Below, in pieces: positions 19,032 through 41,759 of a stretch of DNA of 64,000 nucleotides. The notes below the pieces were generated by a model. That model saw only the letters and a program-made list of their open reading frames with translations, did not search any database and was not told where the DNA came from. Source of the stretch: Verrucomicrobiota bacterium (GTDB taxonomy: Bacteria > Verrucomicrobiota > Verrucomicrobiia > Limisphaerales > UBA9464). The DNA lies in the NCBI GenBank assembly GCA_041688515.1, contig JBDNHZ010000185.1, forward strand, positions 1,376 through 65,375, given 5' to 3'. The translations under genes were made by a program, and so were the position numbers. How positions within the stretch are numbered: position 1 is the first letter of the stretch; every line of letters begins with the position of its first letter.

Positions 19032-19447
19032 GCACCTCGGCACCCGCCGAATCCGCAGGGACGCTCATCCCGGACTCCACGAAACGGACCGGCGGTGTCA
19101 GTCCCGACACCAAAGCGGTGGCCGTGGCCGCAAGTCGCTTGAGCTGGTAACAGTTGATCCTCAACTCTCGGGCCATGCGGGCCAGACCCTAATCCCCCGC
19201 TTCCTTCGCGCCTTTGCATCTTCGTTGTTCACTCGCGTCATCAGGTGGCAACCGTCGGTCACCAGCCATTGTTCTCCAACCATCGCACAAGATCCTGCTC
19301 AACAATTCGCCACTCCTGCCGGGTGAGCGGGCGGATAGACAGCAAGTCACGGAATACCTGGCATGCGTGGAGACGCACCATCCGGCGGGTCACGCCCGGG
19401 GTAAGCGGAGGAGGCTGGATCTCAGCAGGCGGCCGGCTGTTTTTCAC
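18985..19447 (-). mobile_element. possible degraded IS accessory (IS66 TnpA / IS3 OrfA-like HTH) gene fragments
   Basis: Two short minus-strand ORFs in different frames. 19259..19447 reads ...RPLTRQEWRIVEQDLVRWL. 18985..19176 reads ARELRINCYQLKRLAA...TPPVRFVE. These recall the RRxWTxEEKxRIV ... VARxxGxxxxLLxxWRR ... FVPV layout of IS66-type TnpA. Weak, pattern-level similarity only. Confidence 0.3.
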
Positions 19448-19626
19448 GAGACATGTCGATGGGGTTACCCGGCGGATGTTGTAGCACTCCCGGTATCGTA
19501 CCGGTCGGCTGCCCGGTGCGACTACTGGTGAGAACGCGATCCGTCGGTGAGTGAAAGGACTAGCCCGGATATTTCACAGGCATTCGACGCGGAATGCAGC
19601 GGAAGATCGGCACCCCACCCGGGTGT

Positions 19627-21057
19627 TCAGATCCGTGCCGGCGGCACCCCGGGTTCCAACGAGGCACGGACCCTGGGCAGCGCCTGAGGATACCGCTCCT
19701 GGAGATGGGCGATCAGTTTCTCACGGATTTCGCAGCGCAGATTCCATGCCTTGGAGGCGTCGGCGGACGTCGCCAGCACCCGGAGTTGCATGGCGCGATC
19801 GGTTGTTTCCGTCACCTGCAGGTTCCAGAAGCGTCGGTCCCAGTCACCGCACCCCTTCACAATCTGTTCGATCGCCGGCCGCAGTTCGGCGAGCGGCAGG
19901 GTGAAATCAACCCACACAAACACGGACCCGAGGATATCCGCCGATTTCCGCGTCCAGTTCTGGAAGGGCTTCTCGATGAAATGGCTGAGCGGCACGATGA
20001 GACGGCGGTCATCCCAGATGTGCACCACCACGTAAGTGAGGCTGATCTCCTCGATGCGGCCCCATTCGCCCTCGACGATGACGACGTCGTCGATCCGGAT
20101 CGGCTGGGTCATGGCGATCTGGAATCCGGCGAAGAGGTTCGCGATGGTGCGCTGGGCCGCGAAGCCGATGATGATTCCCAGCACGCCCGCCGACGCGAGA
20201 ATGCTTGTGCCGAAGCGCCGGACTTCATCGAACAGCATCAGCACGGACGCCGCAGTGAAGATTCCGATGATGACGGAGAGCGTCTTGCCCAGCACGTGAA
20301 CCTGCGTGTACACCGTGCGCGCCTGGAGGTTGTCCGCCGCTTTGATGTCGTATTGGGACAACACGGCCTTCTCCGCCAAGGCGACCGCCTGGAACAGGAT
20401 GTAGGCGACCGCACCGATGATGAGGATGCTGCTCGCCCTGCCGAGGACGCCGGCGGATTCCGGGGACAATCCGATCATCGGCAGGGCGAAGATGACACCG
20501 ACCACCGGAACAATGACGCGCAGGCTCCGCCCGAGCAGCGGCACCACGAGGTCGTCCAGCTTGCTCTCCGTCCTGCCTGCCCATGCTTTAAGACCGGCTT
20601 CCAAGACATGGGTGGATTTGAAGAACAGCCAGAAAACCGCGACAAAAATGCCGGCGTTGAACAGCGTGTCGAAGAGCAGCCGTGCGGGGTGGGATCCATC
20701 GGTGCCCGAGAGCTTCAACAGCACGGGGGTCGCGGCGATGCCGACGCCAAGGATCCAGAGGAGGAGGTAGAGCGGGCGTCCGATGGTCCGCCAGAACATC
20801 GCCCTCCATTGACCCGATTCGGAGCCACCTTCGGCTTGGCGGACCTTCCGTCTGAGGAACGAGGCCGCAAGACCATTGACCACCACCACCAGAAGGACCA
20901 GGCAGAGGACGACACCCCCGTCTGCCCGGGAGAGGTTCCCGAAAAGCGGTGCACCGACCTCCGGTCCAAAAATCTGTTCCGCCAGGGTGGTCAGCAGTTT
21001 TGTCAGGCCAACGGCGATGCCGTCGAGGAAGCCATTTCCGGCCGCAGTGGTGTTCAT
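19627..21057 (-). CDS. MscS-family mechanosensitive ion channel
   Basis: Multiple N-terminal TM helices, then the MscS core LGIIIGFAAQRTIANLFAGFQIAMTQPIRIDDVVIVEGEWGRIEEISLTYVVVHIWDDRRLIVPLSHF. ATG 21057 overlaps the treY stop (ATGA 21054-21057). Confidence 0.9.
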   Translation of the reverse strand: MNTTAAGNGFLDGIAVGLTKLLTTLAEQIFGPEVGAPLFGNLSRADGGVVLCLVLLVVVVNGLAASFLRRKVRQAEGGSESGQWRAMFWRTIGRPLYLLLWILGVGIAATPVLLKLSGTDGSHPARLLFDTLFNAGIFVAVFWLFFKSTHVLEAGLKAWAGRTESKLDDLVVPLLGRSLRVIVPVVGVIFALPMIGLSPESAGVLGRASSILIIGAVAYILFQAVALAEKAVLSQYDIKAADNLQARTVYTQVHVLGKTLSVIIGIFTAASVLMLFDEVRRFGTSILASAGVLGIIIGFAAQRTIANLFAGFQIAMTQPIRIDDVVIVEGEWGRIEEISLTYVVVHIWDDRRLIVPLSHFIEKPFQNWTRKSADILGSVFVWVDFTLPLAELRPAIEQIVKGCGDWDRRFWNLQVTETTDRAMQLRVLATSADASKAWNLRCEIREKLIAHLQERYPQALPRVRASLEPGVPPARI

Positions 21058-23666
21058 GAAGCGTGGGTTGCCTGGGTTGAGGCCCGGGCGTCCGGATCGA
21101 TCTTTTCCAGAAGTGCCACCGGAAAATCGGCCAGCACTTCGGCCAGCATCACGGAGGGGTTCCCTCCGAGTGCCCGGACTTCGAGATGCGCCCCGGTGAA
21201 AACATTGCGGAGACGACAGCCGGAAAGCGCCGGCGGGAGGGCCAACCGCGTGTCGCCCCAGATTTCTCCACCAACGGGGATCGGGTCCCGGCCTCCGGCA
21301 AGTCCATGGACCAACCGGGGCACCACCGTGATGGCAATGGTGCCTCCCAGGGATCGGGCGAAGGCGCAGACATGCATCGTGCGCACCCCTGTTGCGGACA
21401 GGGGAAGATAGTCACCTTTGCGGTAAAGCAGCTCGTGTAGCCGACGGAAATGGAGCGTCCGGTGGATGACCGACATCTTGATCCGGCCATCATCCGAAGC
21501 CTCGCGAAACGTTCCGGTGGTGAGGGGGACGGTTCTGGACCTGGACTCCCGCTCCAAATGCTTCAAAGCCTCCTCCCGCACGCCGTAGTCAACCGGCCGG
21601 CGGTTGTCCGGATCCACCAGACTCAAATCCCACAGTTCGGTTCCTTGGTAGAGGTCCGGAACGCCCGGCGTGGTGAGTTTGAGCAGCGTCTGCGCCAACG
21701 AATTGATGCGACCGGCTACGATCACGTCCGGGAGGAACTGCTCAAGCATCCCGACGAACTCCGGGTCGCCGATCACCGAGGAGACGAAACCCGCCAGCGC
21801 CTCGTCATACGCAGCATTCCGGTCGGTCCAGTTGGTGTGCTGCTTGGCCTCGCGCGACGCCTTCTCCATGTAGGCCAGCGCGCGATCCACCGGCAGCGGC
21901 CAGGCCCCCACCAGGATCTGATAAAAGAGGTACTCGGCATTCCGGTCCGGCAGGCCGTCGCGGCGATGGCGCTCATTCCAGTCCGACCATCGACGTACGG
22001 CCTCAGCCCACCGGTCCGGAATCTCCGACAAAACGGTGAGCCGGGCCCGGACATCCCCACTGCGCTTGGTGTCGTGGGTCGTCGACGCCAGCATGGTCCC
22101 CGGCCATTGCTCCAGCGAGCGACGGCAGGCGGCATGGAACGTCTGCAATCCCACGCCAAAGTGAGAAGGATCGCCCCCCACCTCATTGAGGACTACCAGG
22201 CGGTTGAAGCAGTAGAACGTGGTATCCTCAACCCCCTTGGCCATGGCGGGTCCGGCCAACTGCTGAAAGCGCATCACGAACTCGGCCTCCAATCCCTCCT
22301 CCAGACGATCCTGAAGGAGGTCACCAATGAAGGTCAGTATCCAGGGAGCAGGCGTGGGGTGCTCCTGCGTCGCCGATGCGAGCGCCTGCGCTATCCAGGC
22401 ACGGTCGGCATCGGACCGTCCGCTCTTTCCCACCTGGGCATAGGTTCGATAAACCGGAAAACAAACCAGCATCGCGACGATCGCCTGTCGCGTCTCGTCG
22501 AAACCCACCGCCCGTTCCGGGCAGCGCGCAGCGAGGATCACTTCCAGCAAGCGGACCAACCGTTCCACCTCGGTGAGGAGCTGGTTCGTCAGGATCCACC
22601 GCTTCTTTTCCCGCACCATTGGACCGTAGTCAGTCGGTTCCCCGGTGAATCGGGAGTAGAACTCCGTGATCGGCCGCTCCCCGGCGGGGTCAACAAACAA
22701 TTCGTCAACCCGGGCGAGATAGTCGTAGCCCGTGGTGCCATCGACCGGCCAGTCGACCGGGAGGTCCTCGCCCGGCTCCAGGATCTTCTCAACGACGATC
22801 CACGCGCCCGGAACGGACTCCCGCAAGTCCGAGAGATACTGCTGCGGATCACGCAACCCGTCCGGATGATCCACGCGCACGCCGTCGATCCAACCCCGCC
22901 GGTGCCAGTCGATGATGCGATTGTGAGTGGCCGTGAAGACTTCCGGCCGTTCAACACGGATCCCCGCGAGGTCGGTGATGGTGAAGAAGCGCCGGTAGTT
23001 CAACCGGTGATCGCCCTGCCTCCAGAAGGACAGCCGGTAATGCTGCAACTCCAGCAGGCGGACCAGGGACTCCCGGTCGGTGTTGAACCCGGCGATCGCC
23101 TCCTCCCGCAATGTCCCGGGGGCGGGGAGGGTCTCCGGGTTGACCGGATACCGGTGGTCAAAATACCGGACCATCACCTCGCCGCCCTCGGACAGCACAC
23201 CGAGTTCATCCCGTTCCAAGACCTGCTGCAGTTCATCCCCCAGCACAGGCAGGAGAACCTTGCCCCTCAACCCGTCCCCAGGCGACTCCCAGTCGATGTC
23301 GAAGTAGCCCGCAAACGGGCTCTTTCGTCCGTTCCTCAGCACATCCCACCACCACGGATTCTCCCGTGCGGCAGCCATATGGTTGGGAACAATGTCCAGC
23401 ACCAGGCCCAGGCCCCGCTCACGGAGTGCGGCAACGAACGCCTCGAATTCCGCAGCGGTGCCCACCTCGGGATTGACCCGGGTCGGGTCGCAGACGTCGT
23501 AGCCGTGGGTGCTGCCCGCCCGGGCCGCGAGCAACGGGGATGCATAGGCATGGCTCACGCCCAGCGCGGCGAGATAGGGCACGATGGCCAGCGCATCCCG
23601 CAGCGTGAACCCGCGATGAAACTGAAGCCGGTAGGTGGCCCGCGGCCGCTTCGTTTCCATGCTCAT
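21054..23666 (-). CDS. treY: malto-oligosyltrehalose synthase
   Basis: ATYRLQFHRGFTLRDALAIVPYLAALGVSHAYASPLL...GSTHGYDV, LVLDIVPNHMA, GVRVDHPDGL. Start set at ATG 23666 (MSMETKRP), overlapping the GH57 stop (ATGA). Confidence 0.9.
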   Translation of the reverse strand: MSMETKRPRATYRLQFHRGFTLRDALAIVPYLAALGVSHAYASPLLAARAGSTHGYDVCDPTRVNPEVGTAAEFEAFVAALRERGLGLVLDIVPNHMAAARENPWWWDVLRNGRKSPFAGYFDIDWESPGDGLRGKVLLPVLGDELQQVLERDELGVLSEGGEVMVRYFDHRYPVNPETLPAPGTLREEAIAGFNTDRESLVRLLELQHYRLSFWRQGDHRLNYRRFFTITDLAGIRVERPEVFTATHNRIIDWHRRGWIDGVRVDHPDGLRDPQQYLSDLRESVPGAWIVVEKILEPGEDLPVDWPVDGTTGYDYLARVDELFVDPAGERPITEFYSRFTGEPTDYGPMVREKKRWILTNQLLTEVERLVRLLEVILAARCPERAVGFDETRQAIVAMLVCFPVYRTYAQVGKSGRSDADRAWIAQALASATQEHPTPAPWILTFIGDLLQDRLEEGLEAEFVMRFQQLAGPAMAKGVEDTTFYCFNRLVVLNEVGGDPSHFGVGLQTFHAACRRSLEQWPGTMLASTTHDTKRSGDVRARLTVLSEIPDRWAEAVRRWSDWNERHRRDGLPDRNAEYLFYQILVGAWPLPVDRALAYMEKASREAKQHTNWTDRNAAYDEALAGFVSSVIGDPEFVGMLEQFLPDVIVAGRINSLAQTLLKLTTPGVPDLYQGTELWDLSLVDPDNRRPVDYGVREEALKHLERESRSRTVPLTTGTFREASDDGRIKMSVIHRTLHFRRLHELLYRKGDYLPLSATGVRTMHVCAFARSLGGTIAITVVPRLVHGLAGGRDPIPVGGEIWGDTRLALPPALSGCRLRNVFTGAHLEVRALGGNPSVMLAEVLADFPVALLEKIDPDARASTQATHAS

Positions 23667-26092
23667 CCGTTGACCTTGAATCCCAGTTGCTCGCTCAGGC
23701 GATCGAACTGGGCCAGCCATTCCACGGAGGCCGTGTCCCCCTGGTCGGCCTTCGAGCGTCGCTCCGCGGCGATCGTCTTCAGCATCCCGAAGCAGAGATT
23801 CTGGGTCTTCCAGAGATTCACCTCGATGCCCATCATGCGGACGACCTCAGCCAAGTTTGCCGTGCGGGTCAGCAGCGTCATGTCGTCCGGAGACTGCATC
23901 AGACGTTCCATACACCGGTCGATGTTGCCCTTGATGGCGTATCCGAGCATTTCGTGCTGCAGTTCGACACTGTCGGCGCGCGCCTCCTCCACAAGGGCCT
24001 TCACCCGGGCGGGATCGGCGGCATCGGATTCGAACTGTCGACGCAGATCGCAGTTCAGCACGAAGTCGACGGCCGTCTTCAGCTCAGCCGGTGCCGGCGC
24101 GCCGATGTCCTTCAGGAAGCGGGCGAGCGGAGTGTACTGGTTGGAAATGTCACGGTAGTGCTTCTCGATATCCAGGCTGGTGGATGCCAGCACCTGCTTG
24201 ATGATTTTTCGCTGCTCATCCCGGAACAGGTATTTCAGCGTGTAATAGGACTCTCCGAAATGGCGGTCCATGAGCCGGATCACGGTCGGAAAGTCGGCGC
24301 GGTTGAAGGCCTCGGTGAACTCGGCCACCAGCTTCTCAAACGCCTCTTCCCCCCGGAAGAACCGCACGCCGCCGTTCACATTATGATCCCCCAGGTGCAG
24401 GGCCGCGTAGCTGATTACGTCGGAGGCCCGCGTAATGTCGAAGGTCACCTTGGACCGTCCGATGATGAGCCGGGCCTTTCCGGCGGTCAGCAATTCGCGA
24501 TGCTGTTGCTCGAAGGTGAAGGCGTAGATGTGTCCCTTCTCGGGATACGTTTCGAACAGCGAGCTGACGGCGAAATGCGCCCCAACCTTCTCGCGATCGA
24601 TGATCGCCGGCTTGACGAACTTCTCATAGATCACCTTCCCGTTGCGGTGTTCGGAAATATTGCTCGGCGCCTTGGCCAGGCGCTCGACGAAGCCGGGTTC
24701 CAGGTCCTCACCACAGAGGTTCTGGAGCAGCTGGAGGGCGCGGCCGGCGTACTGGATCACCTGCACCGTCTCGATCCCGGACAACTCGTCGAAGAACCAT
24801 CCGCAGCTGGTATACATCAACATCGCGTGGCGCTGGAGCTCCATCAGGCGGAGGAACGCCAACTGCTGCTCCTCATTCAGCGGATGCCGGGCGTGACGCC
24901 CGATGAATGCCGCAAGGCTCGCGTCGGAACGGTCGAGGATGACGGAGACATAATCATCGCGGGCGGCCCACGGATCCTTGACCAGCACGGCAGCCTGCGC
25001 CTCGAAGCGCGAGTACAGTTGATCGCGCAGCCAGTCCAGCGCCTCGCGCAGCGGGCCGCGCCACCGCTGGTTCCATCCCGCCCTTCCGCCGCTGTTGCAA
25101 CCGCAGTCCGTGAACCAGCGTCCCACCCCGTGCGAGCAGCTCCAGGCGCTCTTCTCATGGATCTGCGCCTCCATCGCCGGAGGATGGTTCTCCAGGTACT
25201 CGCCGTAGTTGGTGAGCTTCGCCAGGTGGTTGGACTCGATGTGATTCAGCGCGTGAGCCAGGCCCATTTCGCCGTACCGATGGTGGTGCCCGTAGGATTC
25301 ACCGTCGGTGGCGATGTGAACGAGCTGGTCCCAGTCACGCCCGTCGTCAAACCCATCGGCGAGCCGGTGCGCAAAGGTTTCCCCGCTGTTCAGCAACCCC
25401 TCGAAGGCAACCGCCTTGGAGATGTGCGCGTCGTAGAAGAAGACCACGATGCTCCGTTGGGAGGGCAGCTTCACGAGGTACGGACGCGACGGGTCCACCC
25501 GGCCTCCGCTGACGTCGGACCACTCCCCGCCCTGCAGGGGTCGGATCCGGTTCGCCTGGTAGGGGGAGAGGATGGTGAACTTGATTCCCTGCTCCGCCAG
25601 CACCTCGAGGGACGGCGTGTCCGCGGCGGTCTCCGAGAGCCACAACCCCTCCGGCTTGCGGCCGAAGCGATGCTCGAAGTCGCGGATACCCCAGATCACC
25701 TGGGTCTTCTGGTCCCGGGGATTCGCCAGCGGCAGGATGATGTGATTGAACACCTGCGCGATCGCCGAGCCGTGCCCGGAGAATCGCAGGCAGCTCTGTT
25801 GGTCCGCCTCCACGATGGACGCGAGGATCTCGGGACAATTCTGTTCCATCCACGCCAGCAGGGTCGGCCCGAAATTGAAGCTGATACGCGAGTAGTTGTT
25901 GACGATGTCCACGATGCGCCCGTCGCCATCCAGCGTCCGGGCGGTGGCATTGGGCGCGTAGCATTCGGCGGTGACGCGCTCGTTCCAGTCGTGGTAGGGA
26001 TAGGCGGAGTCCTGCAGCTCAACCGCCTCCAGCCAGGGATTCTCGCGCGGCGGCTGATAGAAATGTCCGTGTAAACAGAGGAATCGTTCCAT
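23663..26092 (-). CDS. glycoside hydrolase family 57 protein (long form with C-terminal DUF3536-like extension)
   Basis: N-terminus MERFLCLHGHFYQPPRENPW and ...HIATDGESYGHHH..., typical of GH57 alpha-glucan-active enzymes; 809 aa. Confidence 0.85.
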   Translation of the reverse strand: MERFLCLHGHFYQPPRENPWLEAVELQDSAYPYHDWNERVTAECYAPNATARTLDGDGRIVDIVNNYSRISFNFGPTLLAWMEQNCPEILASIVEADQQSCLRFSGHGSAIAQVFNHIILPLANPRDQKTQVIWGIRDFEHRFGRKPEGLWLSETAADTPSLEVLAEQGIKFTILSPYQANRIRPLQGGEWSDVSGGRVDPSRPYLVKLPSQRSIVVFFYDAHISKAVAFEGLLNSGETFAHRLADGFDDGRDWDQLVHIATDGESYGHHHRYGEMGLAHALNHIESNHLAKLTNYGEYLENHPPAMEAQIHEKSAWSCSHGVGRWFTDCGCNSGGRAGWNQRWRGPLREALDWLRDQLYSRFEAQAAVLVKDPWAARDDYVSVILDRSDASLAAFIGRHARHPLNEEQQLAFLRLMELQRHAMLMYTSCGWFFDELSGIETVQVIQYAGRALQLLQNLCGEDLEPGFVERLAKAPSNISEHRNGKVIYEKFVKPAIIDREKVGAHFAVSSLFETYPEKGHIYAFTFEQQHRELLTAGKARLIIGRSKVTFDITRASDVISYAALHLGDHNVNGGVRFFRGEEAFEKLVAEFTEAFNRADFPTVIRLMDRHFGESYYTLKYLFRDEQRKIIKQVLASTSLDIEKHYRDISNQYTPLARFLKDIGAPAPAELKTAVDFVLNCDLRRQFESDAADPARVKALVEEARADSVELQHEMLGYAIKGNIDRCMERLMQSPDDMTLLTRTANLAEVVRMMGIEVNLWKTQNLCFGMLKTIAAERRSKADQGDTASVEWLAQFDRLSEQLGFKVNG

Positions 26093-26098
26093 GAAGTC

Positions 26099-27949
26099 TT
26101 ATTTTTTCACAGGATTGCAGTAGAGCGCAAAGGATGTCTTGGAGATCTCCAGACGCACACGGCCTTCCGACACAATCTCCGGCGCGGTCAGCGATCCAGG
26201 TCCGCCCCATTGCGGGTCGGCCGAGTCCAACCGCCGGAGCCATCGGCCAGGCGGCAAGGGCAGGTCCATCGCACGCCGTTCCGGGGAGAAGTTGAAAAGG
26301 AGGAGAATCTCGCTGTCTCCACACCATTGCCGGATGACGAGGACGCTCTCCGCCTCGAACGCCATGGTTTCCAAGGTCTCCTTCTCAACCCTGGAAAGTG
26401 CCGGCACCTGCGTCCGCACCGCCAGAAGCTCACGGTGGAATTCGCGCAACTCTTGGTGCGCGCCTTCCTTGCCGAGGGCGTGGTTGAGTTTACAACGCAG
26501 GAAGGTGGCCTCGTCCTGAGGATCGGGCACCTCCCCCTTCCATCCAAACGCGGCAAACTCCTCGCGCCGCCCCTTGCGAACCGCCTCGACCAGCGCCGGA
26601 TCCGTGTGGCTGATGAAATACTGGAAGGGCGCCGTCTCGCCGTACTCCTCGCCCATGAAGAGCATGGGGACAAACGGCGACAGAAGCAGTGCCCCCGCTG
26701 CGAGCCGCTGCCGGGCGGGTAAAATCGAGCCGCTGATGCGGTCGCCGAGCATCCGGTTGCCGATCTGGTCGTGGTTCTGGCTGCAGACCACAAACTGTCC
26801 CACGGGATTCAGGCGGGGATTGCTGCCATGCCGGTGTCCCCGGTGGGGGGCGTACTCGCCGGTGTAGGCGTATCCCTCCCGCCAAACCTTGGCGAACTGC
26901 CGGACGCCCTTGAAGTCCGAGTAATAGCCGCTCTGCTCGCCGGTCAGCAGCACGTGCAGGCAATGATGGAAATCATCGCTCCATTGCGCATCAAGACCGT
27001 ATCCACCGAGTTCGACCGGCAGGATGTGCCGCGCCATGTTCATGTCGCTCTCGGCGATGAGATGAAACGGGCGGCCAAGGATCTCCGCCTGCCGGTGGCA
27101 GGCCGAGGTCATTTCCTCCAGAAACGGAACCGCCGAGAAATCGCGGATGGCGTGGACGGCATCCAACCGGAGCGCATCGATATGAAACTCGGTCTGCCAG
27201 TAAAGCGCGTTCTCGGTGAAGTACCTCCGGACGCCGTCGCTTTGCGGTCCATCGAAGTTCAGGGCCAGTCCCCACGGGGTGCGATAGCGATCCGTGAAGT
27301 AGGGCGCGAATTCGCCGAGGTAATTCCCCTCCGGGCCCAGGTGGTTGTAGACCACGTCCAGAATGACGGCGACTCCGTGCGCATGAGCGGCATTGACGAG
27401 CCGTTTCAAACCCGTAGGCCCCCCGTAGGAATCCTGCACCGCGAACGGGCTCACCCCGTCGTAGCCCCAGTTCCGTGTTCCCGGGAATTGCGCGACCGGC
27501 ATCAGCTCGATGGCGGTGATGCCGAGGTTCCTCAATTCGGCGAGATGGCCGACCACGCCGTCGAACGTGCCCTCCGTGCTGAACGTCCCAACGTGGAGTT
27601 CGTAGATCACATGGTCACGCAGTGGCGGTCCGGACCACGCCTGATCAGTCCACGGAAACCCCGGGTCCACGACCCGCGACGCTCCATGAACCCCCTGCGG
27701 TTGCCAGCGTGAAGCCGGGTCCGGACGTGTGGGTCCGCCATCAAGCCGGAACAGGTAGTCGCTGCCCGCAGGGACACTTTCAACCAAGGCGGCATGGTAA
27801 CCCATCGCGTCCTTCTGCAGCGGCAGCACCCGCTCCGTTGTGCCGGGGAGGTGAAGTTCGACCCGCTCGACGCCGGGCGCCCAGACGCGGAAGGAACACC
27901 GATCCACACCCTGCGGAATCGCACCAAGGAAAAGGGGGGGAGGATTCAT
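26099..27949 (-). CDS. treZ: malto-oligosyltrehalose trehalohydrolase
   Basis: GH13 motifs [51 protein letters not shown]. Start set at ATG 27949 (MNPPPLFLG), overlapping the glgB stop (ATGA); the ORF-track start is 28030. Confidence 0.9.
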
Positions 27950-29949: not shown

Positions 29950-29951
29950 CG

Positions 29952-31250: not shown

Positions 31251-31320
31251 ATCGCGATTCTTTACCGGGTGGAAGCGACGGTCTACTGGGCAGTTCCCGG
31301 CTCGGCTCTCAGTAAAACAC

Positions 31321-33456: not shown

Positions 33457-33516
33457 GGTGTATCGTTGGGGTCCGCCGCGGGCACTCCGCCCAGGGCGGA
33501 GCATCCGGCAAGCGCA

Positions 33517-34755
33517 TCAAGGCTCATTGGACTTTGCGGGAATGTCCTCCAGGCGTTTTTCCTCGACACTGATGGTGACGTGACGGGGGGCGATGTCGTC
33601 GAGTTTAAGCTCCCTCGGAAACGTCAGGTCGCCGGGCTCGATGAGCACCCTGTTCATACCCTTGCCCACGCCGGAAAGATCCAGGACGAGCTTGATATCC
33701 TCGCTTCCCCTGAACCCGAAAGCACTGCGCTGACCGACCACCGTCACCTTGACAACGTCAGGCACAATCTTGGCCACCGAGAGGGTGCTGGGCACCAGCC
33801 CATAGCTCACCGCGACATCAAAGGTCTTCTGCACCGTCTGGGAGCGCTGGACCACCACCACCCACAAACCGACGGCCAGCGCCAGGGCGACGGCCTTCTC
33901 GCGATAGTTGACCTGCAAGATCCTCCGAAAGGATGTGGTCTCGGTGCGGGGCGCAATCTCGTCGTAGAAGGCGGTCAGGATATCCACAAGCTGCGCCGGC
34001 GTGGATACCCCCAGGATACTGCCGGCGCGGGCCACCGAGATGGTCCCCCGTTCCTCCGACACGATCAGGCACAACGCGTCGGTACGTTCGGAAAGGCCGA
34101 GCCCCGCCGCATGGCGCGTTCCGCTGCGGGGCAACTTCTCCAGGTTCTTGGACAGCGGCAGATGGCATCCCAGCTTGTCAATCAGGTGACCGTCGATGAT
34201 GACCGCGCCATCGTGGCCGATGGAATGCGGGTCAAAGATGCTCTTCAGAAGAGGTTCGCTCAGGCGTCCTCCGACCTCCTCCCCGCCCTCCAGGTGCCGG
34301 GCGATGGAGTCCTTTCCACGGATGACCACCAGCGCACCGATCCGGGCGCGGGCGAGGTCACCCAGCGTTCGCGCCAGCGTCTCAACCTCACTGCGGGGCA
34401 GGCCCGCGGTCGTCCTCCGGTAACGCGGCAGCCGGCACTCGACCCACCAGAGGCCGACGCGCTCAAAGAAGTACCGCAGGTCCTCCTGGAAGATCACCAC
34501 CAGCGCCACGAGGATCACCGCGAAGAACCCCTGCAGCAGGGCGATGGTGAGCACGAGATTCAGCTTCTGAGCCGCGAGGTAGATGGCGGCGACAATGACC
34601 ACGCCCATGAAGATCAGGCCGGAGCGCCGGGTGCGCTTCAGCGCGATCAGGAAGGCGTAGATGACCAGCGTCACGACCACGATGTCCAACAGGCCTGACC
34701 AGCCGACGTCGCCCAGGGCCGAGGCGGCGTGTTTGAGGCGGTCCACGAGGTTCAT
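33517..34755 (-). CDS. cdaA: diadenylate cyclase CdaA fused to a C-terminal YbbR-like (CdaR-type) domain
   Basis: Three N-terminal TM helices. DAC domain with HDGAVII (DGA) and GTRHAAGLGLSERTDALCLIVSEERGTISVA (RHR-type). A further TM (AVALALAVGLWVVVV), then a YbbR-like beta module (VKVTVVGQRSAF...IKLVLDLSGVGKGMNRVLIEPGDLTFP...IAPRHVTISVEEK). Confidence 0.85.
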   Translation of the reverse strand: MNLVDRLKHAASALGDVGWSGLLDIVVVTLVIYAFLIALKRTRRSGLIFMGVVIVAAIYLAAQKLNLVLTIALLQGFFAVILVALVVIFQEDLRYFFERVGLWWVECRLPRYRRTTAGLPRSEVETLARTLGDLARARIGALVVIRGKDSIARHLEGGEEVGGRLSEPLLKSIFDPHSIGHDGAVIIDGHLIDKLGCHLPLSKNLEKLPRSGTRHAAGLGLSERTDALCLIVSEERGTISVARAGSILGVSTPAQLVDILTAFYDEIAPRTETTSFRRILQVNYREKAVALALAVGLWVVVVQRSQTVQKTFDVAVSYGLVPSTLSVAKIVPDVVKVTVVGQRSAFGFRGSEDIKLVLDLSGVGKGMNRVLIEPGDLTFPRELKLDDIAPRHVTISVEEKRLEDIPAKSNEP

Positions 34756-34759
34756 GGCA

Positions 34760-35821
34760 TCAGCTCAGAAAGGGCTTCCGCGGCTCGACCCTGGACGGGA
34801 CGCGCAGCCGTTTCAACAGGCGGGCCTGAAGCCACAACTCGCGGGCGCGCCAAATCTCCTCGGTGGCGTCGATGCTGACGGGGCAACTGCCCCCCGCGAT
34901 CGGTCCATGGCCGCCGGCTTGTTTGCAATTCTCAAAGACGTCCCGCAACACCTCACCGGCCTGGGCGTCAGAACGGTTGGTGCGCAACGAGGCATGCAGA
35001 CGCCCCTTGTACCGCCCGGTCACGAAACAGCACACCACCCGCTGGTAGGCCAGGAGGAACTCCGCCACCTGCGAGACCAGGTCGGGAGTTTCCACGGTCC
35101 CCAGGTGGGACACCAGCACCCGCCGGTGCAGCGTGGCGTCGCGGATGCCTTTGCCCAGTGTGGCGAAAAACTTCCGGGAGCGCACCGGGTTCTGGATGCG
35201 TGCCAGCAGGCGCATGTCGCAGTGATGCAACACCTGCAGATACGTCGCAACGACATCCGGCCGTTTGGCGCGGTAGAGGTCAAGTGTGTCGGTCAGGATG
35301 CCGTACGCCAGCGCAGTGGCCACGCGCGTCGGAATCTTCGTCCCGTTCTGCAGAAGGGCCTGGGCAATGATCACGCACGTCGCGCCGCATTCCGGATCCA
35401 CCACGGCCAGATCCGCGCTGGGAACGGAAGCGGACGGATGCTGGTCGATGACCATCGTCGCCTTGCGATCCTTCGGAAATGAGTTGTTCTCAAAGGCCGG
35501 CTGGGTGTCCACCAGCGCGACCGAGGCGTACTTCTTGAACCACGCCGGTTTGATCCGGTGGATTGGGATCTTCAGCAGGCGCACCATCGCCTTGTTTTCC
35601 GTGCGTCCAACCTCACCCCCGTAGGCGATCCGCGACGTGATTCCGAAACCGCCCTGCGCCAGGTGCTGCAACGCCATCGCCGCCGCCAGGGCATCGGGAT
35701 CCGGGTAGTCGTGGGTCAGGATCAGCAGCGGGGAGAGCTTCTCGCGATTGCGGGCAAGATACTGAAGGAGCCGCTGCGGGGCGGTGCCGATGGTCGACTG
35801 TGGTTCGGATCGGTTGATCAT
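34760..35821 (-). CDS. DHH/DHHA1-family phosphoesterase (NrnA / c-di-AMP phosphodiesterase-like)
   Basis: LILTHDYPDPDALAAAMAL, ALVDTQP, MVIDQHP, GILTDT, GGHGPIAGG (DHHA1 GGGH-type). Start at ATG 35821 (MINRSEPQ), overlapping the upstream stop (ATGA). The stop lies 4 nt before the cdaA start. Confidence 0.8.
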   Translation of the reverse strand: MINRSEPQSTIGTAPQRLLQYLARNREKLSPLLILTHDYPDPDALAAAMALQHLAQGGFGITSRIAYGGEVGRTENKAMVRLLKIPIHRIKPAWFKKYASVALVDTQPAFENNSFPKDRKATMVIDQHPSASVPSADLAVVDPECGATCVIIAQALLQNGTKIPTRVATALAYGILTDTLDLYRAKRPDVVATYLQVLHHCDMRLLARIQNPVRSRKFFATLGKGIRDATLHRRVLVSHLGTVETPDLVSQVAEFLLAYQRVVCCFVTGRYKGRLHASLRTNRSDAQAGEVLRDVFENCKQAGGHGPIAGGSCPVSIDATEEIWRARELWLQARLLKRLRVPSRVEPRKPFLS

Positions 35822-36303
35822 TCCGGCTTCAGGGCCAGGGACGTCAGGGTAGCCCGACACGGGCGGCCGCCCTTGTCGGGTTTGATCCACAGCCGGAGAT
35901 GGGTGATTGCCTCGCCGGCGATCGCCCAATCCTCGCGTTCAAGGGTGGTGTTGGGCGGCGAGAAGTTGAACTCCTGGCGGACCAGTTCCTGGTAACCGCG
36001 GCCCCCGTCCCGGGAGACCGCCAGTTGCAGTTCCTGGGTCCGGCTGTCCTGCGTTTCTTCCACCTCCACGAGGACACGCCCGATCCGCTGGGGGACGTCA
36101 AACGCAAGGATCAGCGTCTGTTCACCCGGCGTCGCGGCGATCCACCGGCTGGCGCCCGGGCCGCGATGGCCATCGAACGCATTCTCGACGGGATGCTCCG
36201 GCGACTCGGACGTGATCATCACGGTGGCGAGGGAGGCCACATCCAGTTCGTCGTGCGACGAAACCGGAGCGGCAGGATCGGACCCAAGGATTTGTTTTCG
36301 CAT
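35818..36303 (-). CDS. small galactose-binding-domain-like (F5/8 type C / discoidin-like) protein, no signal peptide seen
   Basis: 161 aa. ESPEHPVENAFDGHRGPGASRWIAATPGEQTLILAFDVPQRIGRVLVEVEE resembles the discoidin-domain N-terminal strands. Fold call is by pattern only. Confidence 0.55.
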   Translation of the reverse strand: MRKQILGSDPAAPVSSHDELDVASLATVMITSESPEHPVENAFDGHRGPGASRWIAATPGEQTLILAFDVPQRIGRVLVEVEETQDSRTQELQLAVSRDGGRGYQELVRQEFNFSPPNTTLEREDWAIAGEAITHLRLWIKPDKGGRPCRATLTSLALKPE

Positions 36304-36341
36304 GGCTTATTCCTCGAACGCGCCGGCTCGGAGGCCCGGCG

Positions 36342-39300
36342 CTACTTGTTTTCGTCCAGAAGGTGAAGGACCCCCTGCAGCGGGATCTTCAGCCACGCCG
36401 GACGGTTGTTCAGTTCGTATCCGATCTCATAGATGGCTTTATTGAGCAGGTAGGCCTGCAGGACCATGCGCCGTTCCTCGGAGGTGGAGGGGAGGATCTC
36501 CGAACTACCCAGAGCCTTTAGGTAGGCCCGCAGGAAACTGGCGCTGACGGCAAGGTTCCAGAAGCGCGCCCACGGTTCGTAGGTCGCCCGGTTCTCCGGC
36601 GACAGTCTCCCGCGCTCCACCTGCTGCTCCAGTCCGAAGTAGGCGGCGTAGTGGAAGGACCGGATCATTCCCGCCACGTCGCGCAGCGCCGACCGCTTGA
36701 TGAGACGTTCGCTCAGGGCCACCGCGGGCTCACCTTCGAAATCGATGATGACGAAGTCCTTGCCTGTCCAGAGGACCTGGCCCAGGTGATAGTCGCCGTG
36801 AATGCGGATCCGCCGGGCGCTGATGTTGCGCTGGAACAGGGGCTTGTACCGGTTGATGATCTCGCCCTCGAGCGCGCCGACCTTAGCCGCCATCGGCGCG
36901 ACGTCCGCGGGAAGCGTCTTGATCTGCTTGCGCAGCACCCGGAGGTTCTGCGACGCAAGATTGCGCATCGACTGGAACAGCCCGCGCAGGTAGTGCGGCG
37001 TGAAGGGTTCGGAGGCGAAGCTCGTATCCTCCGGCTCGGACGCCAGCGCGAGGTGCATGGCGGCGGTGCGCTCACCCAGCATCCGGGCGGACTCCAGGTA
37101 GGTGCCGACGGTTTCCTGCACGATAGAGGAAGGCTCCTCGCCGCTGAGGCGGAACAAGTCGCCGCCCATGGCCGGCGGCTTTTCGCCCTTCGCATGGAGC
37201 ACGCCCACGCGGTCGTAGTAACGACCCAATGCGTCCAGGGCGACCTCCCAGGCATCCTTCGCGTTCGGAACGAATCCTGAGATGATGGCGAGGCTGCTCC
37301 GCTCGCCGTTGGAGGCGTGATACTCCAGCGCTCCGGCCAGCGGGGCCACGTTCGGGAACTTCTTTTCCGTAAGGAACCGTCCGATCTCCAGGTCGGGATT
37401 GATCCCCACGTCCAGGCGCCGGAACAGCTTCATCATGAGCTTGTCTCCGAACAGTACCGACGAGTTGCTCTGCTCCGCCTTGCCGAGCGTGGGAGTCGGG
37501 GCCTTGGCTGCCCCCAGGATGCTCCGCATCGCGAGGGTGCGCGAACCTTCGACCACGCCCTGCGCCCCCGCGCTGCGGCCGCCCTTGGAGGCCATTCCCA
37601 GCAGCGCCTTGCAGAAGGCCGGGCTCCCCAGCGCGTCGTGCAGGACCCCGGCGGGTCCGCCTTCCACCTTCAGGTCGGCGATGACCAGCCGGGGCGAATT
37701 CTCGCGGAGCTGTTGGGCGTCCTTGCCGGACGCGAATGCCAGCGGCATGGAATACAATTCCGGATCCCCCTGCACATAGTCCACCAGCAGGAGCGTCAGG
37801 TAACCCAGTTCCTTCCCATCCGCCGGCACCGGTGCGGCTTCCTTGAGGGTGAGCGACTTGATCTCCTTGGCCTTCCCCCCGAACCACCGTTGGGCCCGGA
37901 CATAGTCCGGCAGCAAGGCTTCCAAGGCGGTTTTGGACCTTCCTTTGAACACATCGGACCACTCGTTCATCACCGTCAACGACCGTGCCGCCAGCGGCCC
38001 ATTGGACAGGGTTGCCGAAACATCGGCCTGCTTGTTCTCCAGCGAGAACCAGTAGAACGCGTGCGGCCCCATCGTAATCAGGTACGGCTTGTCGGTGATG
38101 GGCGGGAAATCCGTGCGGCCGAACAGCTCGACCGGCACCATCTTGTCGAAGGCGGAGAGATCCAGTTGGACCGGTTGCACGAAGCGCGACAGGTTGGCCA
38201 CGACCAGCAGGGTCTCCTTCTCATGCCGCAGGACATAGCAGAGGATCCTGCGGTTTTCGGGTTGGAGGAACTCGCATTTTCCCTCGCCCAGAGCGCGCCA
38301 CTTCTTCCGAAGCGCCAGCAGGCGGCGGGTCCACCACAGCAGGGAATGGGGGTTGCCCATCTGGCCTTCCACGTTCACCGCCTCATAGTGGTACTCCGGG
38401 TCGTAGATGATGGGCAGGTAAAGGGCCTGCGGATTCGCACGTGAGAAGCCGGCATTCTTGTCGGAACTCCACTGCATGGGCGTCCGCACCCCATTACGAT
38501 CCCCGAGGAAGATATTCTCACCCATGCCGATCTCGTCCCCGTAGTAGAGGACGGGCGTGCCCGGGAGGGAAAAGAGTAGCGCGTTGAGCAACTCGATGCG
38601 CTTGCGATCGTTTCCGAGCAGGGGCGCGAGCCGGCGGCGGATGCCCAGGTTCAGCCGGGCCTGGTGAACGTTGGCGTACATGCGGTACATGTAGTCACGC
38701 TCCTCGTCCGTCACCATTTCCAGCGTCAGTTCATCGTGGTTGCGCAGGAACAGTGCCCACTGGGCGGTCTCCGGGATCGCCGGCGTCTGCTCAAGGATGT
38801 CCACGATGGGGGTGCTGTCCTCCATGCGAAGCGCCATGAACAGGCGCGGCATGAGGGGAAAGTGAAAGGCCACATGGCACTCGTCGCCCTTGCCTTCACC
38901 GAAGTACGCCACGGCGTCCTCCGGCCACTGGTTGGCCTCGCCCAGCATCATACGGTCCCCGTACTTCTCGTCCACGTGGGCGCGCAGCCTCTTCAGGGCC
39001 CCGTGGGTCTCCTTGAGGTTCTCGCAGCTCGTGCCCTCGCGCTCGAAGAGATAGGGCACAGCGTCCAGCCGGACGCCGTCCACGCCGAGATCCAGCCAGA
39101 AATCCATCACCTTGATCATCTCGTCGAAGACCTCGGGATTATCGAAATTGAGGTCCGGCTGGTGCGAGAAGAAACGGTGCCAATAATACGCTCCGGCCAC
39201 ATGGTCCCAGCTCCAGTTCGACACCTCGACATCCTTGAAGATGATGCGGGCCTCCTTGTACTTCTCCCGGGTGTCGCTCCAGACGTAGAAATCCCTCCAC

Positions 39301-39713
39301 CGACTGCCCGGCTTGGCGCGGCGCGCACGCTGAAACCACGGATGCTGGTCTGAGGTGTGGTTCATCACCAGCTCGGTGATGACCCGCAGCCCCCGCTGAT
39401 GGGCTTCGCGCAGGAAAACCTTGAAGTCCGCCAGGGTGCCGTAGTTGGGATGGACGGTGAAGTAGTCGGCGATGTCATATCCGTCGTCACGCAGTGGCGA
39501 CGGATAGAACGGCAGGAGCCACAGCGCGGTGACACCCAAGTCCTTCAGGTAGTCCAGCTTGCTGGTCAGTCCCTTGAAATCCCCGATGCCGTTCCCGTCG
39601 CTGTCGCAGAATGCACGGACGTGCAGCTCGTAGATGACACCGGATTTATACCACAATGGATCCCGATCCAGACCCGGGTTGTTAGCTTTCTTGCTCGGCC
39701 TGATTTTTGCCAT
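36342..39713 (-). CDS. treS: trehalose synthase (maltose alpha-D-glucosyltransferase) fused to maltokinase
   Basis: TreS part: [77 protein letters not shown]. Pep2 part: [27 protein letters not shown]. 1123 aa. Confidence 0.9.
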
Positions 39714-39743
39714 GGTAGAGGAGTGAAAGTGACGTAAGGGGGA

Positions 39744-41759
39744 TCAAAGATAATAATCGAAGCTTTCTTCCGTGCAGACCCGGCGTCGCAGGCGGAAGAC
39801 ATGGGCGGGGGCAAACGCCGGGTCCAGTTGCACGAAATTCCGGGCGCCGTTCCACAGGTATCGCCCATCGGTCAGGAGGTCATGCACCTGGTAGCTACCG
39901 GTCGGAGCGATATCCCACTCCTCCACCGGAAGCGTCAGCCAACCGCTCTGGACGTGATGGGGATCCAGATTGACCACCACGAGGATGAGGTTGTCGGACC
40001 CCTCCGCGGATTTGCTGAAGGCGATCATCTGGTCGTTGTCGGTGGGGTGGAATTCCAGGCCGTCGTTCCGGTGCAGCGCGGGATTGTCACGACGGATCTG
40101 GTTCACGCGGCGGATCAGCTCCGTCAGATTGCCCGGAAGATTCAGGTTCCAGGAGCGAATCTCGTACTTCTCCGAATCAAGATATTCCTCGGCACCGGCG
40201 GCCCGGGACTGGTTCACGCACAACTCGTACGCAGGCCCGTAGATTCCGTAACTGGCGCCGAGCGTGGCCGCCAGAATGAGCCGCGACATGAACGCGGGGC
40301 GTCCCCCATATTGCAGGCTGAGCGGGAGGATGTCCGGAGTATTCGGCCACAGGTTCGGCCGGAGAAATTCGCTCACCTCGGTGCGCGTGAGCTCCGTCAG
40401 GTACTCCGTCAACTCCTTCTTGGTGTTGCGCCAAGGGAAGTAGTTGTAGGACTGCGTGAACCCTGCCTTGGCCAGCCGGTACATGACCTTGGGACGGGTG
40501 AAGGCCTCGGACAGGAAGATCATCTCCGGGTGCTTCTTCTTCAGCTCCGTGATGCACCACTGCCAGAACGGAAATGCCTTGGTATGGGGATTGTCGACGC
40601 GGAACACTGTTACCCCCTGCCCATGCCAGAATTCGAAGACACTCTTCAATTCCAGCCACATCGCCTTCCAGTCGCCACTCTCAAAGTCGAACGGATAGAT
40701 ATCCTGGTATTTCTTCGGGGGATTCTCGGCGTACTGGATGGAGCCATCCGAACGTTGGCGGAACCAGTCCGGATGCGCCTTCACGTACGGATGGTCCGGC
40801 GCGCATTGGAACGCGATATCCAGCGCGATCTCGATCTTCAACTCCCGCGCCCGCATCACAAGACGACCGAAATCTGCCAGTGTTCCAAGCTCCGGAAGGA
40901 TCGACTTGTGCCCGCCTTCAATGGCCCCGATGGCCCACGGACTGCCCGGCTCACCCGGCTGGCATTCGGGATTGTTGTTCTTCCCCTTGCGGAAGGCCCG
41001 GCCGACCGGATGGATCGGCGGGAGATAAAGGACGTCAAAACCCATTTCCGCCACCCGAGGCAGATGGTCGATCACATCGTCCAGAGTTCCATGTTTCCCG
41101 TCCTTTCCGAGCGATCGGGGGAACAATTCATACCACGCACCGAATCGAGCGAGCTCCGGATCAACGGTGATGCACAACTCCCTGACATACCGGGTCGAAC
41201 GTTGCCGGTCCGGATTGGCCGCCATCAATGCGGCCAACTGGGGCGACAGGGCGAGCGCGATGCGGCTTTCCAGTCCGGACGGATCCTGCTCGGTCAACGC
41301 CCGGGCCGACGCCGTCAGTTGCAGCGTTCCTTCCTGGACGGCCCGCCTTGCGGCGGCACCGACCAACCGCGCACCGTCCCGGAGATCCACCGAGAGGTCC
41401 TGCCCGGCCTTGTGCTTCTTGGCCAGGTCATGCTGCCACGACTTGAAATGATCAACCCACGCCAGGACGGTATAGCGGTATCCGCCCATTCCGGTGACCT
41501 CGAACCGCCCCCGCCATCGGTCGTTTACCAGCGGCACCATCGGGACTTCACTCCAGTCCGTTTCGCCCTCCTTCCGATAAAGCAGCACCGCAGCGATAAG
41601 GTCATGACCGTCGGTGAAGATGTCCGCCTCGACCTCGACGTGATCACCGACGGTACGCTTGATCGCAAACTGTCCGGCCTCGATCTCCGGACGCACCTCC
41701 GAAATGACCACTCGGCAGTCACCATCCAATTTTTCAGCTGATTTCTTAGAATCCGACAT
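39744..41759 (-). CDS. glgE: alpha-1,4-glucan:maltose-1-phosphate maltosyltransferase
   Basis: GFDVLYLPPIHP, FRVDNPHTKAFPFWQW, FLSEAFTRPKVMYRLAKAGFTQSYNYFPWRNTKKEL; 671 aa. Confidence 0.9.
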   Translation of the reverse strand: MSDSKKSAEKLDGDCRVVISEVRPEIEAGQFAIKRTVGDHVEVEADIFTDGHDLIAAVLLYRKEGETDWSEVPMVPLVNDRWRGRFEVTGMGGYRYTVLAWVDHFKSWQHDLAKKHKAGQDLSVDLRDGARLVGAAARRAVQEGTLQLTASARALTEQDPSGLESRIALALSPQLAALMAANPDRQRSTRYVRELCITVDPELARFGAWYELFPRSLGKDGKHGTLDDVIDHLPRVAEMGFDVLYLPPIHPVGRAFRKGKNNNPECQPGEPGSPWAIGAIEGGHKSILPELGTLADFGRLVMRARELKIEIALDIAFQCAPDHPYVKAHPDWFRQRSDGSIQYAENPPKKYQDIYPFDFESGDWKAMWLELKSVFEFWHGQGVTVFRVDNPHTKAFPFWQWCITELKKKHPEMIFLSEAFTRPKVMYRLAKAGFTQSYNYFPWRNTKKELTEYLTELTRTEVSEFLRPNLWPNTPDILPLSLQYGGRPAFMSRLILAATLGASYGIYGPAYELCVNQSRAAGAEEYLDSEKYEIRSWNLNLPGNLTELIRRVNQIRRDNPALHRNDGLEFHPTDNDQMIAFSKSAEGSDNLILVVVNLDPHHVQSGWLTLPVEEWDIAPTGSYQVHDLLTDGRYLWNGARNFVQLDPAFAPAHVFRLRRRVCTEESFDYYL

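Follow-up and report, generated by a model that had tools for sequence, protein, structure and literature searches.

A trehalose/α-glucan gene cluster of Verrucomicrobiota with a putative c-di-AMP synthesis and degradation pair and an MscS-type channel

The window analyzed here, a stretch of 64,000 nucleotides (nt) from a Verrucomicrobiota bacterium of the order Limisphaerales (contig JBDNHZ010000185.1, positions 1,376 to 65,375), contains 12 consecutive minus-strand genes extending from glgE (41759) to mscS (19627). The genes of a CdaA-type diadenylate cyclase and a DHH-family phosphoesterase lie among the trehalose/α-glucan genes of this run, and the gene of a mechanosensitive channel of the MscS family is its last cistron. 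We consider it reasonably probable that the run is a conserved osmoadaptation cluster of Planctomycetes-Verrucomicrobia-Chlamydiae (PVC) bacteria, which ties the trehalose/glucan cycle to cyclic di-AMP (c-di-AMP) turnover and to a valve of the MscS type. Nearly the whole cluster is reproduced in a Pedosphaerales relative, and in other lineages trehalose genes recur in the neighborhood of the c-di-AMP pair and in that of the window-type MscS. The nearest named relatives of the cluster belong to Verrucomicrobiota, orders Pedosphaerales and Limisphaerales. The metabolic core has a known counterpart in Pseudomonas. No paper in the literature searched was found to describe its coupling to c-di-AMP and MscS, or cdaA, DHH phosphodiesterase, or MscS genes in trehalose clusters. 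The combination thus appears as undescribed as it had been called in the sequence-only reading, an earlier annotation made from the DNA letters and their open reading frames (ORFs).

Organization and gene content of the cluster

Analysis of the ORF table and of the start codons and junctions bore out the 12 co-directional genes that the sequence-only reading had described. In the order of transcription, the gaps from glgE to mscS are 30, 38, −4, 4, 12, 70, 2, −4, 6, −4, and −4 nt, as compact as had been reported (−4 to about 70 nt), and all four ATGA start/stop overlaps (35818–35821, 27946–27949, 23663–23666, and 21054–21057) are present when read on the minus strand. The guanine-cytosine (GC) content is even across the run (0.61–0.65), so there is no compositional hint of a recent insertion. 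Protein identities were assigned by Pfam and NCBIfam searches, which confirmed every gene named in the earlier reading and identified the product of the unnamed twelfth gene as an F5/8-type-C protein of 161 residues.

The sugar genes cover both directions of the cycle. The route from trehalose to branched glucan runs through TreS-Pep2, GlgE, and GlgB, and the return route through TreY and TreZ. The GlgE pathway, from trehalose to α-glucan, is fully encoded (TreS, Pep2, GlgE, and GlgB) by glgE (α-1,4-glucan:maltose-1-phosphate maltosyltransferase, 39744–41759; Pfam GlgE_dom_N_S, E 4e-61, and GLGE_C, E 6e-32), by a treS-pep2 fusion for trehalose synthase and maltokinase (36342–39713; TIGR02456, 907 bits, and TIGR02457, 457 bits, both above cutoff), and by the branching enzyme gene glgB (27946–29949; NF003811, 978 bits). 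In the opposite direction, from α-glucan to trehalose, the products of treY (malto-oligosyltrehalose synthase, 21054–23666; TIGR02401, 959 bits versus a cutoff of 499) and treZ (malto-oligosyltrehalose trehalohydrolase, 26099–27949; TIGR02402, 728 bits versus a cutoff of 539) both exceed the equivalog cutoffs. The cluster also includes malQ (4-α-glucanotransferase, 31321–33504; Pfam GH77, E 4e-100, together with MalQ_N; TIGR00217, 309 bits) and glgC (glucose-1-phosphate adenylyltransferase, 29952–31250; NF002772, 578 bits, above cutoff). The start of glgC is uncertain; the GTG at 31250 was chosen from the NCBIfam alignment, which begins at residue 117 of the long ORF. The window has no glgA.

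Two further products of the run are an enzyme and a small stand-alone protein of carbohydrate-binding type. The gene between treZ and treY (23663–26092) encodes a glucan-active enzyme with a glycoside hydrolase family 57 (GH57) domain and a DUF3536 domain (Pfam DUF3536, E 3e-118; GH57, E 6e-17). It is placed as glgX is in the Pseudomonas treY/treZ operon, a position that is kept in three of the loci surveyed below (L086, L087, and L030), and its product may supply the debranching step. The cytoplasmic F5/8-type-C protein (35818–36303) resembles carbohydrate-binding module (CBM) family 32 (PF00754, E 2.7e-6, slightly below the gathering score); no signal peptide, transmembrane (TM) segment, or hydrophobic segment was predicted in it. 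A gene of the same type is also located between treS-pep2 and the DHH gene in locus L017 (2698–3174). A separate 72-residue CBM48/AMPK-CBM protein is encoded 5′ of glgE in the Pedosphaerales relative (L090, 2835–3053).

The sequence-only reading had the unit begin at glgE, and this is the part of its extent that probably does not stand. The minus-strand co-directional stretch continues past 41759, with further genes to about 46902, and the first two of these encode a two-component system: a NarL/FixJ-type response regulator (41913–42593, minus strand; NCBIfam response-regulator matches, E 1e-39 to 1e-35) and a cytoplasmic PAS histidine kinase of the HisKA_3 type (42615–44273, minus strand; NCBIfam PAS S-box, E 4.6e-38) with a NarX/UhpB-like kinase core. 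The regulator gene starts 21 nt after the kinase gene and ends 153 nt before glgE. An orthologous kinase–regulator pair lies 5′ of glgE in the Pedosphaerales locus L090, whose regulator is 72% identical to that of the window. Because the order of kinase, regulator, and glgE is kept in this relative, the unit more likely comprises 14 genes; it probably starts upstream of glgE with the two-component system (41913–44273), with the kinase gene as its probable first gene. A perfect 11-bp GC-rich hairpin (GAAGACCGGCC-ATTC-GGCCGGTCTTT, 44714–44739), located between a CbiX-like gene and the kinase gene, is likely a transcript boundary upstream of the cluster.

The putative c-di-AMP pair and the MscS-type channel

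The cyclase gene (33517–34755, minus strand) encodes a CdaA-type diadenylate cyclase that is extended by a fourth TM helix and by a single domain of the YbbR (CdaR-like) type (Pfam DAC, E 4e-32; CdaA_N, E 1.5e-6). By hydropathy, the protein has an N-terminal TM block of three helices, which is followed by the DAC (DisA_N) domain, and residues 22–273 align to the full-length CdaA structure 9g69. The 140-residue C-terminal extension, encoded by roughly 33517–33921 and forming the C-terminal third of the protein, consists of the fourth TM helix and the YbbR domain. The Pfam YbbR match is below threshold (20 bits); a profile of the extension matches the YbbR domain of Listeria Lmo2119 (CdaR) with an E value of 1.2e-5. 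In its AlphaFold2 model (predicted local distance difference test score, pLDDT, 89.7), the six best Foldseek matches in the PDB are all YbbR domains, among them 3lyw with a TM-score of 0.85 and a root-mean-square deviation of 1.8 Å. Proteins of this family have about 405 residues, and the YbbR fusion holds across hundreds of metagenomic homologs. By profile and model, CdaA and a CdaR-type domain are thus naturally joined in one protein, which belongs to a divergent CdaA-like subfamily.

This architecture is reminiscent of the cdaA-cdaR-glmM operon of Firmicutes, in which CdaA is under the control of GlmM and of CdaR, a protein with YbbR domains. Both systems have a three-TM CdaA with a DAC domain, a YbbR partner, and a link to a pathway related to sugar phosphates. 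They differ in that (i) the YbbR domain is single and fused through the fourth TM helix here, whereas Firmicutes have a separate CdaR with repeated YbbR domains; (ii) no glmM is present here; (iii) the catalytic motif reads RHA rather than RHR; and (iv) the neighbors are a DHH phosphodiesterase gene and trehalose/glucan genes.

The DHH gene (34760–35821, minus strand) lies directly upstream of the cyclase gene and encodes a stand-alone DHH-DHHA1 phosphoesterase (Pfam DHH, 37 bits, above the gathering score; DHHA1 slightly below its gathering score). Its AlphaFold2 model (pLDDT 89.7) matches c-di-AMP/pApA hydrolases over the full length in a Foldseek search of the PDB. The top matches are the GdpP catalytic domain, TM1595, Borrelia DhhP, Rv2837c, and Pde2/NrnA (E 1e-18 to 1e-15), and the best 32 matches comprise GdpP, RecJ-like proteins, TM1595, DhhP, Rv2837c, NrnA, and Pde2. 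The protein is therefore predicted by its model to have the fold of the GdpP/NrnA class of c-di-AMP/pApA hydrolases. An assignment as a family II pyrophosphatase, which was weakly preferred by the PDB sequence search, was overturned by the fold search, in which the pyrophosphatases ranked lower. With the stand-alone DHH-DHHA1 proteins (Pde2/NrnA, Borrelia DhhP, Mycobacterium tuberculosis Rv2837c/CnpB, and Thermotoga maritima TM1595) and with GdpP, the window protein has in common the two-domain fold, the GGH of its DHHA1 domain, and motifs I, II, and IV, and the pairing of its gene with a diadenylate cyclase gene is a further likeness. It differs from these known c-di-AMP/pApA phosphodiesterases in sequence (16%–20% identity) and in having DQH where they have DHH, and is a candidate for the hydrolysis of c-di-AMP or pApA.

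A canonical catalytic motif is altered family-wide in each member of this putative synthesis/degradation couple: RHR has become RHA in the cyclase, and DHH has become DQH in the phosphoesterase. CdaA enzymes are listed with the catalytic motifs HDGA and GxRHRxA and the metal site SEET, and the residues tested as essential in Leptospira CdaA are the DGA aspartate and the first Arg of RHR (PMC12974146). The window cyclase retains HDGA, has SEER where SEET is expected, and has GTRHAAG, which reads GTRHAAx across the family, where GxRHRxA is expected; the second Arg of GxRHRxA is Ala in all 44 aligned CdaA homologs, and the first Arg and the His are kept. The cyclase scores 161.9 bits against the TIGR00159 equivalog cutoff of 188.8. 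In the phosphoesterase, motif III is Asp126-Gln127-His128, invariant in 40 of 40 homologs, in place of the canonical DHH; motifs I, II, and IV are intact, and Gly303-Gly304-His305 is invariant in the 40 homologs.

These substitutions could mean that the pair is unconventional, that is to say, that it handles another nucleotide, serves as nucleotide-binding sensors or scaffolds, or includes a nanoRNase unrelated to c-di-AMP. The invariance of RHA and DQH across the families, the scores of the cyclase and of DHHA1 below their cutoffs, and one DHH homolog without an adjacent cdaA (L092) would fit this explanation. It has to account, however, for the retention of HDGA, SEE, and the first Arg and His of RHR, of which the first Arg is essential in the Leptospira enzyme (PMC12974146), for the intact DHH motifs with GGH and the full-length structural matches to c-di-AMP/pApA hydrolases, and for the adjacency of DHH and cdaA in 18 of 34 lineages, as expected for a synthesis/degradation pair. 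We regard an unconventional pair as improbable, and synthesis of c-di-AMP by the CdaA-type protein is plausible from its retained residues.

The channel gene (19627–21057, minus strand), the start of which overlaps the stop of treY, encodes an MscS-family protein of 476 residues (PF00924, E 2e-14) with about seven TM segments predicted by hydropathy. Residues 217–449 align to the Thermoanaerobacter tengcongensis MscS structure 3t9n, covering the pore helix TM3, the β-domain, and the C-terminal α/β domain. The protein reaches no NCBIfam equivalog cutoff and thus belongs to a separate subfamily. The closest named homologs of both the MscS and the DHH protein are encoded by Verrucomicrobiota/Limisphaerales metagenome-assembled genomes. 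An affiliation with Planctomycetes, which a TIGR03067-domain protein had seemed to indicate, was set aside in favor of these relatives.

Neighborhoods of cdaA and mscS in other lineages

For the conservation survey, 80 metagenome loci (numbered with the prefix L) were fetched with a CdaA-family profile, and several long contigs were added. The window proteins were mapped onto the loci by tblastn, the neighboring ORFs were clustered, and cluster representatives were annotated; de-replication at 85% CdaA identity left 62 lineages. Among the 41 lineages whose flanks extend to 3 kb or more, 12 have a trehalose-specific gene no farther than 10 kb from cdaA; where the flanks reach 10 kb or more, the count is 7 of 23. 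The chance rate is about 1%, a value estimated, not measured, for a 20-kb neighborhood in a genome of several megabases. The placement of cdaA/DHH and mscS recurs in rearranged forms in relatives; the refuting condition that the sequence-only reading had named, a placement confined to this strain, therefore does not hold.

The closest counterpart is a single contig binned as Pedosphaerales, parts of which are L086 and L090, that reproduces nearly the whole cluster at 58%–77% amino acid identity. Its genes follow the order of histidine kinase, response regulator, glgE, treS-pep2, DHH, cdaA, SLC12, malQ, glgB, treZ, GH57, treY, mscS, GH15 trehalase, and mgtE. Compared with the window, the contig has an additional SLC12 cation-chloride transporter gene between cdaA and malQ, lacks glgC and the F5/8-type-C gene, and has a GH15 trehalase gene and mgtE added after mscS.

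In other loci, the association takes at least seven arrangements, which involve the non-homologous routes TreS-Pep2/GlgE, TreY/TreZ, OtsA-OtsB, TreT, and trehalases. Read in the direction of transcription, these are glgE–treS-pep2–DHH–cdaA–mgtE (L004); treS-pep2–F5/8–DHH–cdaA (L017); treS-pep2–DHH–cdaA–malQ (L021); cdaA–malQ–treZ (L018); DHH–cdaA–mgtE–glgE–treS-pep2–glgB (L062 and L054); glgE–treS-pep2–glgB–treZ–GH57 divergent from cdaA–mgtE–mscS (L030 and L052); GH57–cdaA–mgtE (L063); DUF5752–treT–otsA-otsB–mscS–trehalase divergent from DHH–cdaA (L084, with the variants L065, L075, and L080); and cdaA followed after a gap of 5 nt by a GH37 trehalase gene (L068). The trehalose-linked loci range in GC content from 41% to 66% and in CdaA identity from 41% to 78%. 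Survival of the association through rearrangement and through the swap to a non-homologous trehalose route is a classical signature of functional coupling.

The channel shows a linkage of its own. All four independent homologs of the window-type MscS that could be placed on a contig follow a trehalose gene, either treY or treS-pep2. In L086 (70% MscS identity), the order is treY, mscS, GH15 trehalase, and mgtE; in L087 (76%), treY is followed by an opposite-strand MarR-like gene and then by mscS and a CitMHS gene, with a TreT gene and mgtE beyond; in L089 (66%), located on a 4.6-Mb contig, otsA-otsB and treS-pep2 precede mscS; and in L091 (60%), the same three genes are followed by a GH37 trehalase gene. 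A shorter MscS subfamily, 24% identical to the window type, is present in five cdaA loci, and trehalose genes are found in all five.

A juxtaposition of cdaA/DHH and mscS with a trehalose/glucan operon that arose by chance, or in this strain only, would be in keeping with the many DHH–cdaA modules that stand in unrelated contexts and with the fluid gene order around the module. It is contradicted by the neighborhood survey: a relative at 58%–77% protein identity keeps the same order, at least seven architectures show the association, with non-homologous trehalose enzymes among them, the MscS homologs are trehalose-linked in four of four loci, and the GC content is uniform across the run. Chance is therefore very improbable and effectively excluded.

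The DHH gene is located directly 5′ of cdaA in 18 of the 34 lineages in which this position is visible, and DHH–cdaA is thus a widespread two-gene module. On the 3′ side, the commonest neighbor of cdaA is mgtE (MgtE_N, CBS, and MgtE domains), which is the next gene in 10 of 36 lineages, often less than 60 nt away (L004, L030, L036, L052, L054, L062, L063, L069, and L070, among others). This adjacency extends the link between c-di-AMP and MgtE from Bacillus to distant Gram-negative lineages. Further contexts of the DHH–cdaA module include P-type ATPases, ClC channels, K/Cl or CitMHS/TrkA_C transporters, gltBD, and glnA-PII.

Several other arrangements were seen in these loci. A block of an otsA-otsB fusion, a TreT-like gene, and a DUF5752 gene recurs on the opposite strand about 1–6 kb 5′ of DHH–cdaA (L065, L075, L080, and L084), and is sometimes joined by MscS and GH37 trehalase genes; DUF5752, an uncharacterized family, appears tied to trehalose synthesis genes in these four loci. 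Nitrogen and glutamate genes accompany cdaA in the order DHH–cdaA–gltB–gltD or with PII and glnA genes a few kb downstream (L093, 10001–19013; L037, L040, L041, L046, and L050). L002 (1–12716) contains a tandem duplication of a three-gene unit of cdaA, a cytidylate-kinase-like gene, and an Adhesin_E-domain gene, and the duplication is neighbored by a 7TMR-HDED/HD (PgpH-type) protein gene, a ClC channel gene, a P-type ATPase gene, and a Usp gene, without trehalose genes.

Proposed function and relation to known systems

Under the favored reading of a conserved osmoadaptation cluster, the two-component system would drive one or a few transcripts across the run, so that the capacities for interconverting trehalose, a compatible solute, with osmotically inert glucan and for turning over c-di-AMP, and a valve for solute release would be expressed together. 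c-di-AMP would coordinate ion fluxes with the trehalose pool, a role that we infer from the MgtE transporters and the transporters with RCK_C and CBS domains, c-di-AMP binders, that neighbor cdaA in relatives. The periplasm-facing YbbR domain could provide an envelope input to the cyclase, and MscS could vent solutes on osmotic downshift. It is possible that c-di-AMP also directly affects a sugar enzyme of the cluster. Gene content, operon-like packing, and conserved placement thus support the sequence-only reading in part, while its single transcript, osmotic response, and c-di-AMP target are left at the level of inference.

c-di-AMP is regarded as a master regulator of turgor, and its documented targets, mostly from work on Gram-positive bacteria, are transporters of K+, Mg2+, and external osmolytes. 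It controls the transport of osmolytes, K+, and Mg2+ through OpuC, Ktr/Kim, KhtT, and MgtE (PMC8844918, PMC10117811); in Bacillus, it binds MgtE, and its levels fall on osmotic upshift and recover during adaptation (PMC8844918). The present cdaA family shares the theme of turgor and osmolytes, with MgtE (CBS), TrkA_C/RCK_C, and SLC12 transporters as its commonest neighbors. By contrast, the known targets transport external solutes, whereas the genes linked here make, store, and degrade an internal compatible solute.

The genes may share no more than their regulation. They would be members of one stress regulon or island, c-di-AMP would, as in Firmicutes, act on transporters of ions and osmolytes and on nothing else, and the sugar enzymes would be neither targets nor regulators of c-di-AMP. 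The clustering would then stem from joint expression or joint inheritance of osmoprotection functions. This explanation overlaps with the favored one and differs from it solely in denying biochemical cross-talk. The commonest neighbors of cdaA elsewhere, namely, mgtE, CitMHS with TrkA_C, and SLC12, are of known c-di-AMP target types (PMC8844918), the sugar enzymes have no receptor domain, and the MscS–trehalose linkage occurs without a nearby cdaA in L089 and L091, all of which speak for it. Less readily explained are the position of cdaA/DHH inside the sugar operon, between treS-pep2 and malQ, with gaps of 4–38 nt (window, L017, L021, L018, and L090), and the absence of a transporter gene from the window cluster itself. 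The persistence of the association through the swap to non-homologous trehalose pathways also goes beyond what one inherited island explains. We regard co-regulation alone as a possibility of some weight, though a doubtful one.

A bolder version of cross-talk is a self-contained osmostat, in which c-di-AMP or its product pApA would bind one of the enzymes of the cluster or one of its accessory proteins (candidates are TreS-Pep2, GlgE, TreY/TreZ, the GH57-DUF3536 enzyme, or the F5/8 protein) and thereby set the direction between trehalose and α-glucan, the YbbR-cyclase would read the state of the envelope, and MscS would be a dedicated trehalose valve. We consider this version unlikely. If true, it would be the first case in which c-di-AMP controls how a compatible solute is made inside the cell, as opposed to how solutes are transported. 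Cyclic dinucleotides are known to reach α-glucan metabolism by protein binding, through c-di-AMP, SbtB, and GlgB in cyanobacteria (PMC8654305) and through c-di-GMP and GlgX in Streptomyces (PMC9530166). The receptors in these precedents are the PII-like SbtB or GlgX itself, and the window cluster has no gene for an SbtB-type protein and no glgX; trehalose is not involved in the precedents and the cyclase does not lie inside the sugar operon, whereas both are the case here.

Several observations weigh against the favored coupling of c-di-AMP turnover and MscS to the trehalose/glucan cycle. About two-thirds of the DHH–cdaA modules lie away from trehalose genes, so the cdaA–trehalose link is frequent and not obligatory; the surveyed lineages are mutually related, and the background of about 1% is an estimate. 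The MscS of the window shares 24% identity with the one beside distant cdaA loci, and the two fall into different subfamilies. The motif substitutions in the cyclase and the phosphoesterase, together with the subcutoff score of CdaA, mean that their activities are assumed. No CBS, RCK_C, USP, or PII-like receptor domain was found by Pfam in the window cluster. An Rfam scan of the whole window at gathering thresholds gave only one tRNA-Asp, with no c-di-AMP riboswitch (ydaO/kimA) and no other regulatory RNA. Promoter and terminator scans, in which the sigma-70 consensus alone was used for promoters, gave nothing above chance within the run, and the 70-nt gap between malQ and glgC and the 153-nt gap between the regulator gene and glgE are roomy enough for promoters.

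The sugar metabolism of the cluster has close precedents. In Pseudomonas aeruginosa and P. syringae, the operons glgE-treS/pep2-glgB and glgA-treZ-malQ-treY-glgX are induced by osmotic or water stress, trehalose protects against salt, and the signaling inputs to the operons have been called undefined (PMC8084333). The enzymes and the logic are the same, with TreS-Pep2, GlgE, and GlgB acting in one direction, TreY and TreZ in the other, and MalQ in addition. The sequence-only reading was therefore right about the joining of both directions as far as gene content goes, and the joining is not new in itself (PMC8084333). The differences are that the two Pseudomonas operons correspond to a single co-directional run here; that the GH57-DUF3536 gene takes the place of glgX, and glgC is present without glgA in the window; and that the diadenylate cyclase, the DHH phosphodiesterase, MscS, and the two-component system have no counterpart in the Pseudomonas operons.

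A parallel for the channel is MscCG of Corynebacterium glutamicum, an MscS-type channel that is tied to the release of one major cytoplasmic solute. MscCG belongs to a different subfamily with a different topology, and the association of the window-type MscS with trehalose is one of gene order, given by its position after treY or treS-pep2.

The conserved link of a c-di-AMP pair, a mechanosensitive channel, and five kinds of trehalose enzyme provides a testable hypothesis, according to which pools of an internal compatible solute would be tied to second-messenger signaling in PVC bacteria that are abundant in soil and freshwater. Two protein families that lend themselves to study are delimited as well, the RHA-type CdaA-YbbR fusion and the DQH-type DHH enzyme.

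The surroundings of the cluster are those of an ordinary chromosome, as indicated by the presence of rpoB and rpoC in the window. On the 3′ side, mscS is followed by about 1.4 kb without recognizable genes and then by a plus-strand tRNA-Asp gene (18125–18201; whole region 18125–19626). In the Pedosphaerales relative, mscS is succeeded by a GH15 trehalase gene and mgtE; remnants of these two were searched for in this gap and not found, and neither mgtE nor another transporter of the c-di-AMP-target type was found in the window. Toward the other end (50000–64000), rpoC (54423–58691) and rpoB (58615–62547) lie in a region with a GC content of 0.55–0.58, compared with about 0.63 before it. The largest other genes of the window encode a CotH-kinase/LTD protein (49386–53342) and a subtilase of 1751 residues (8449–13704).

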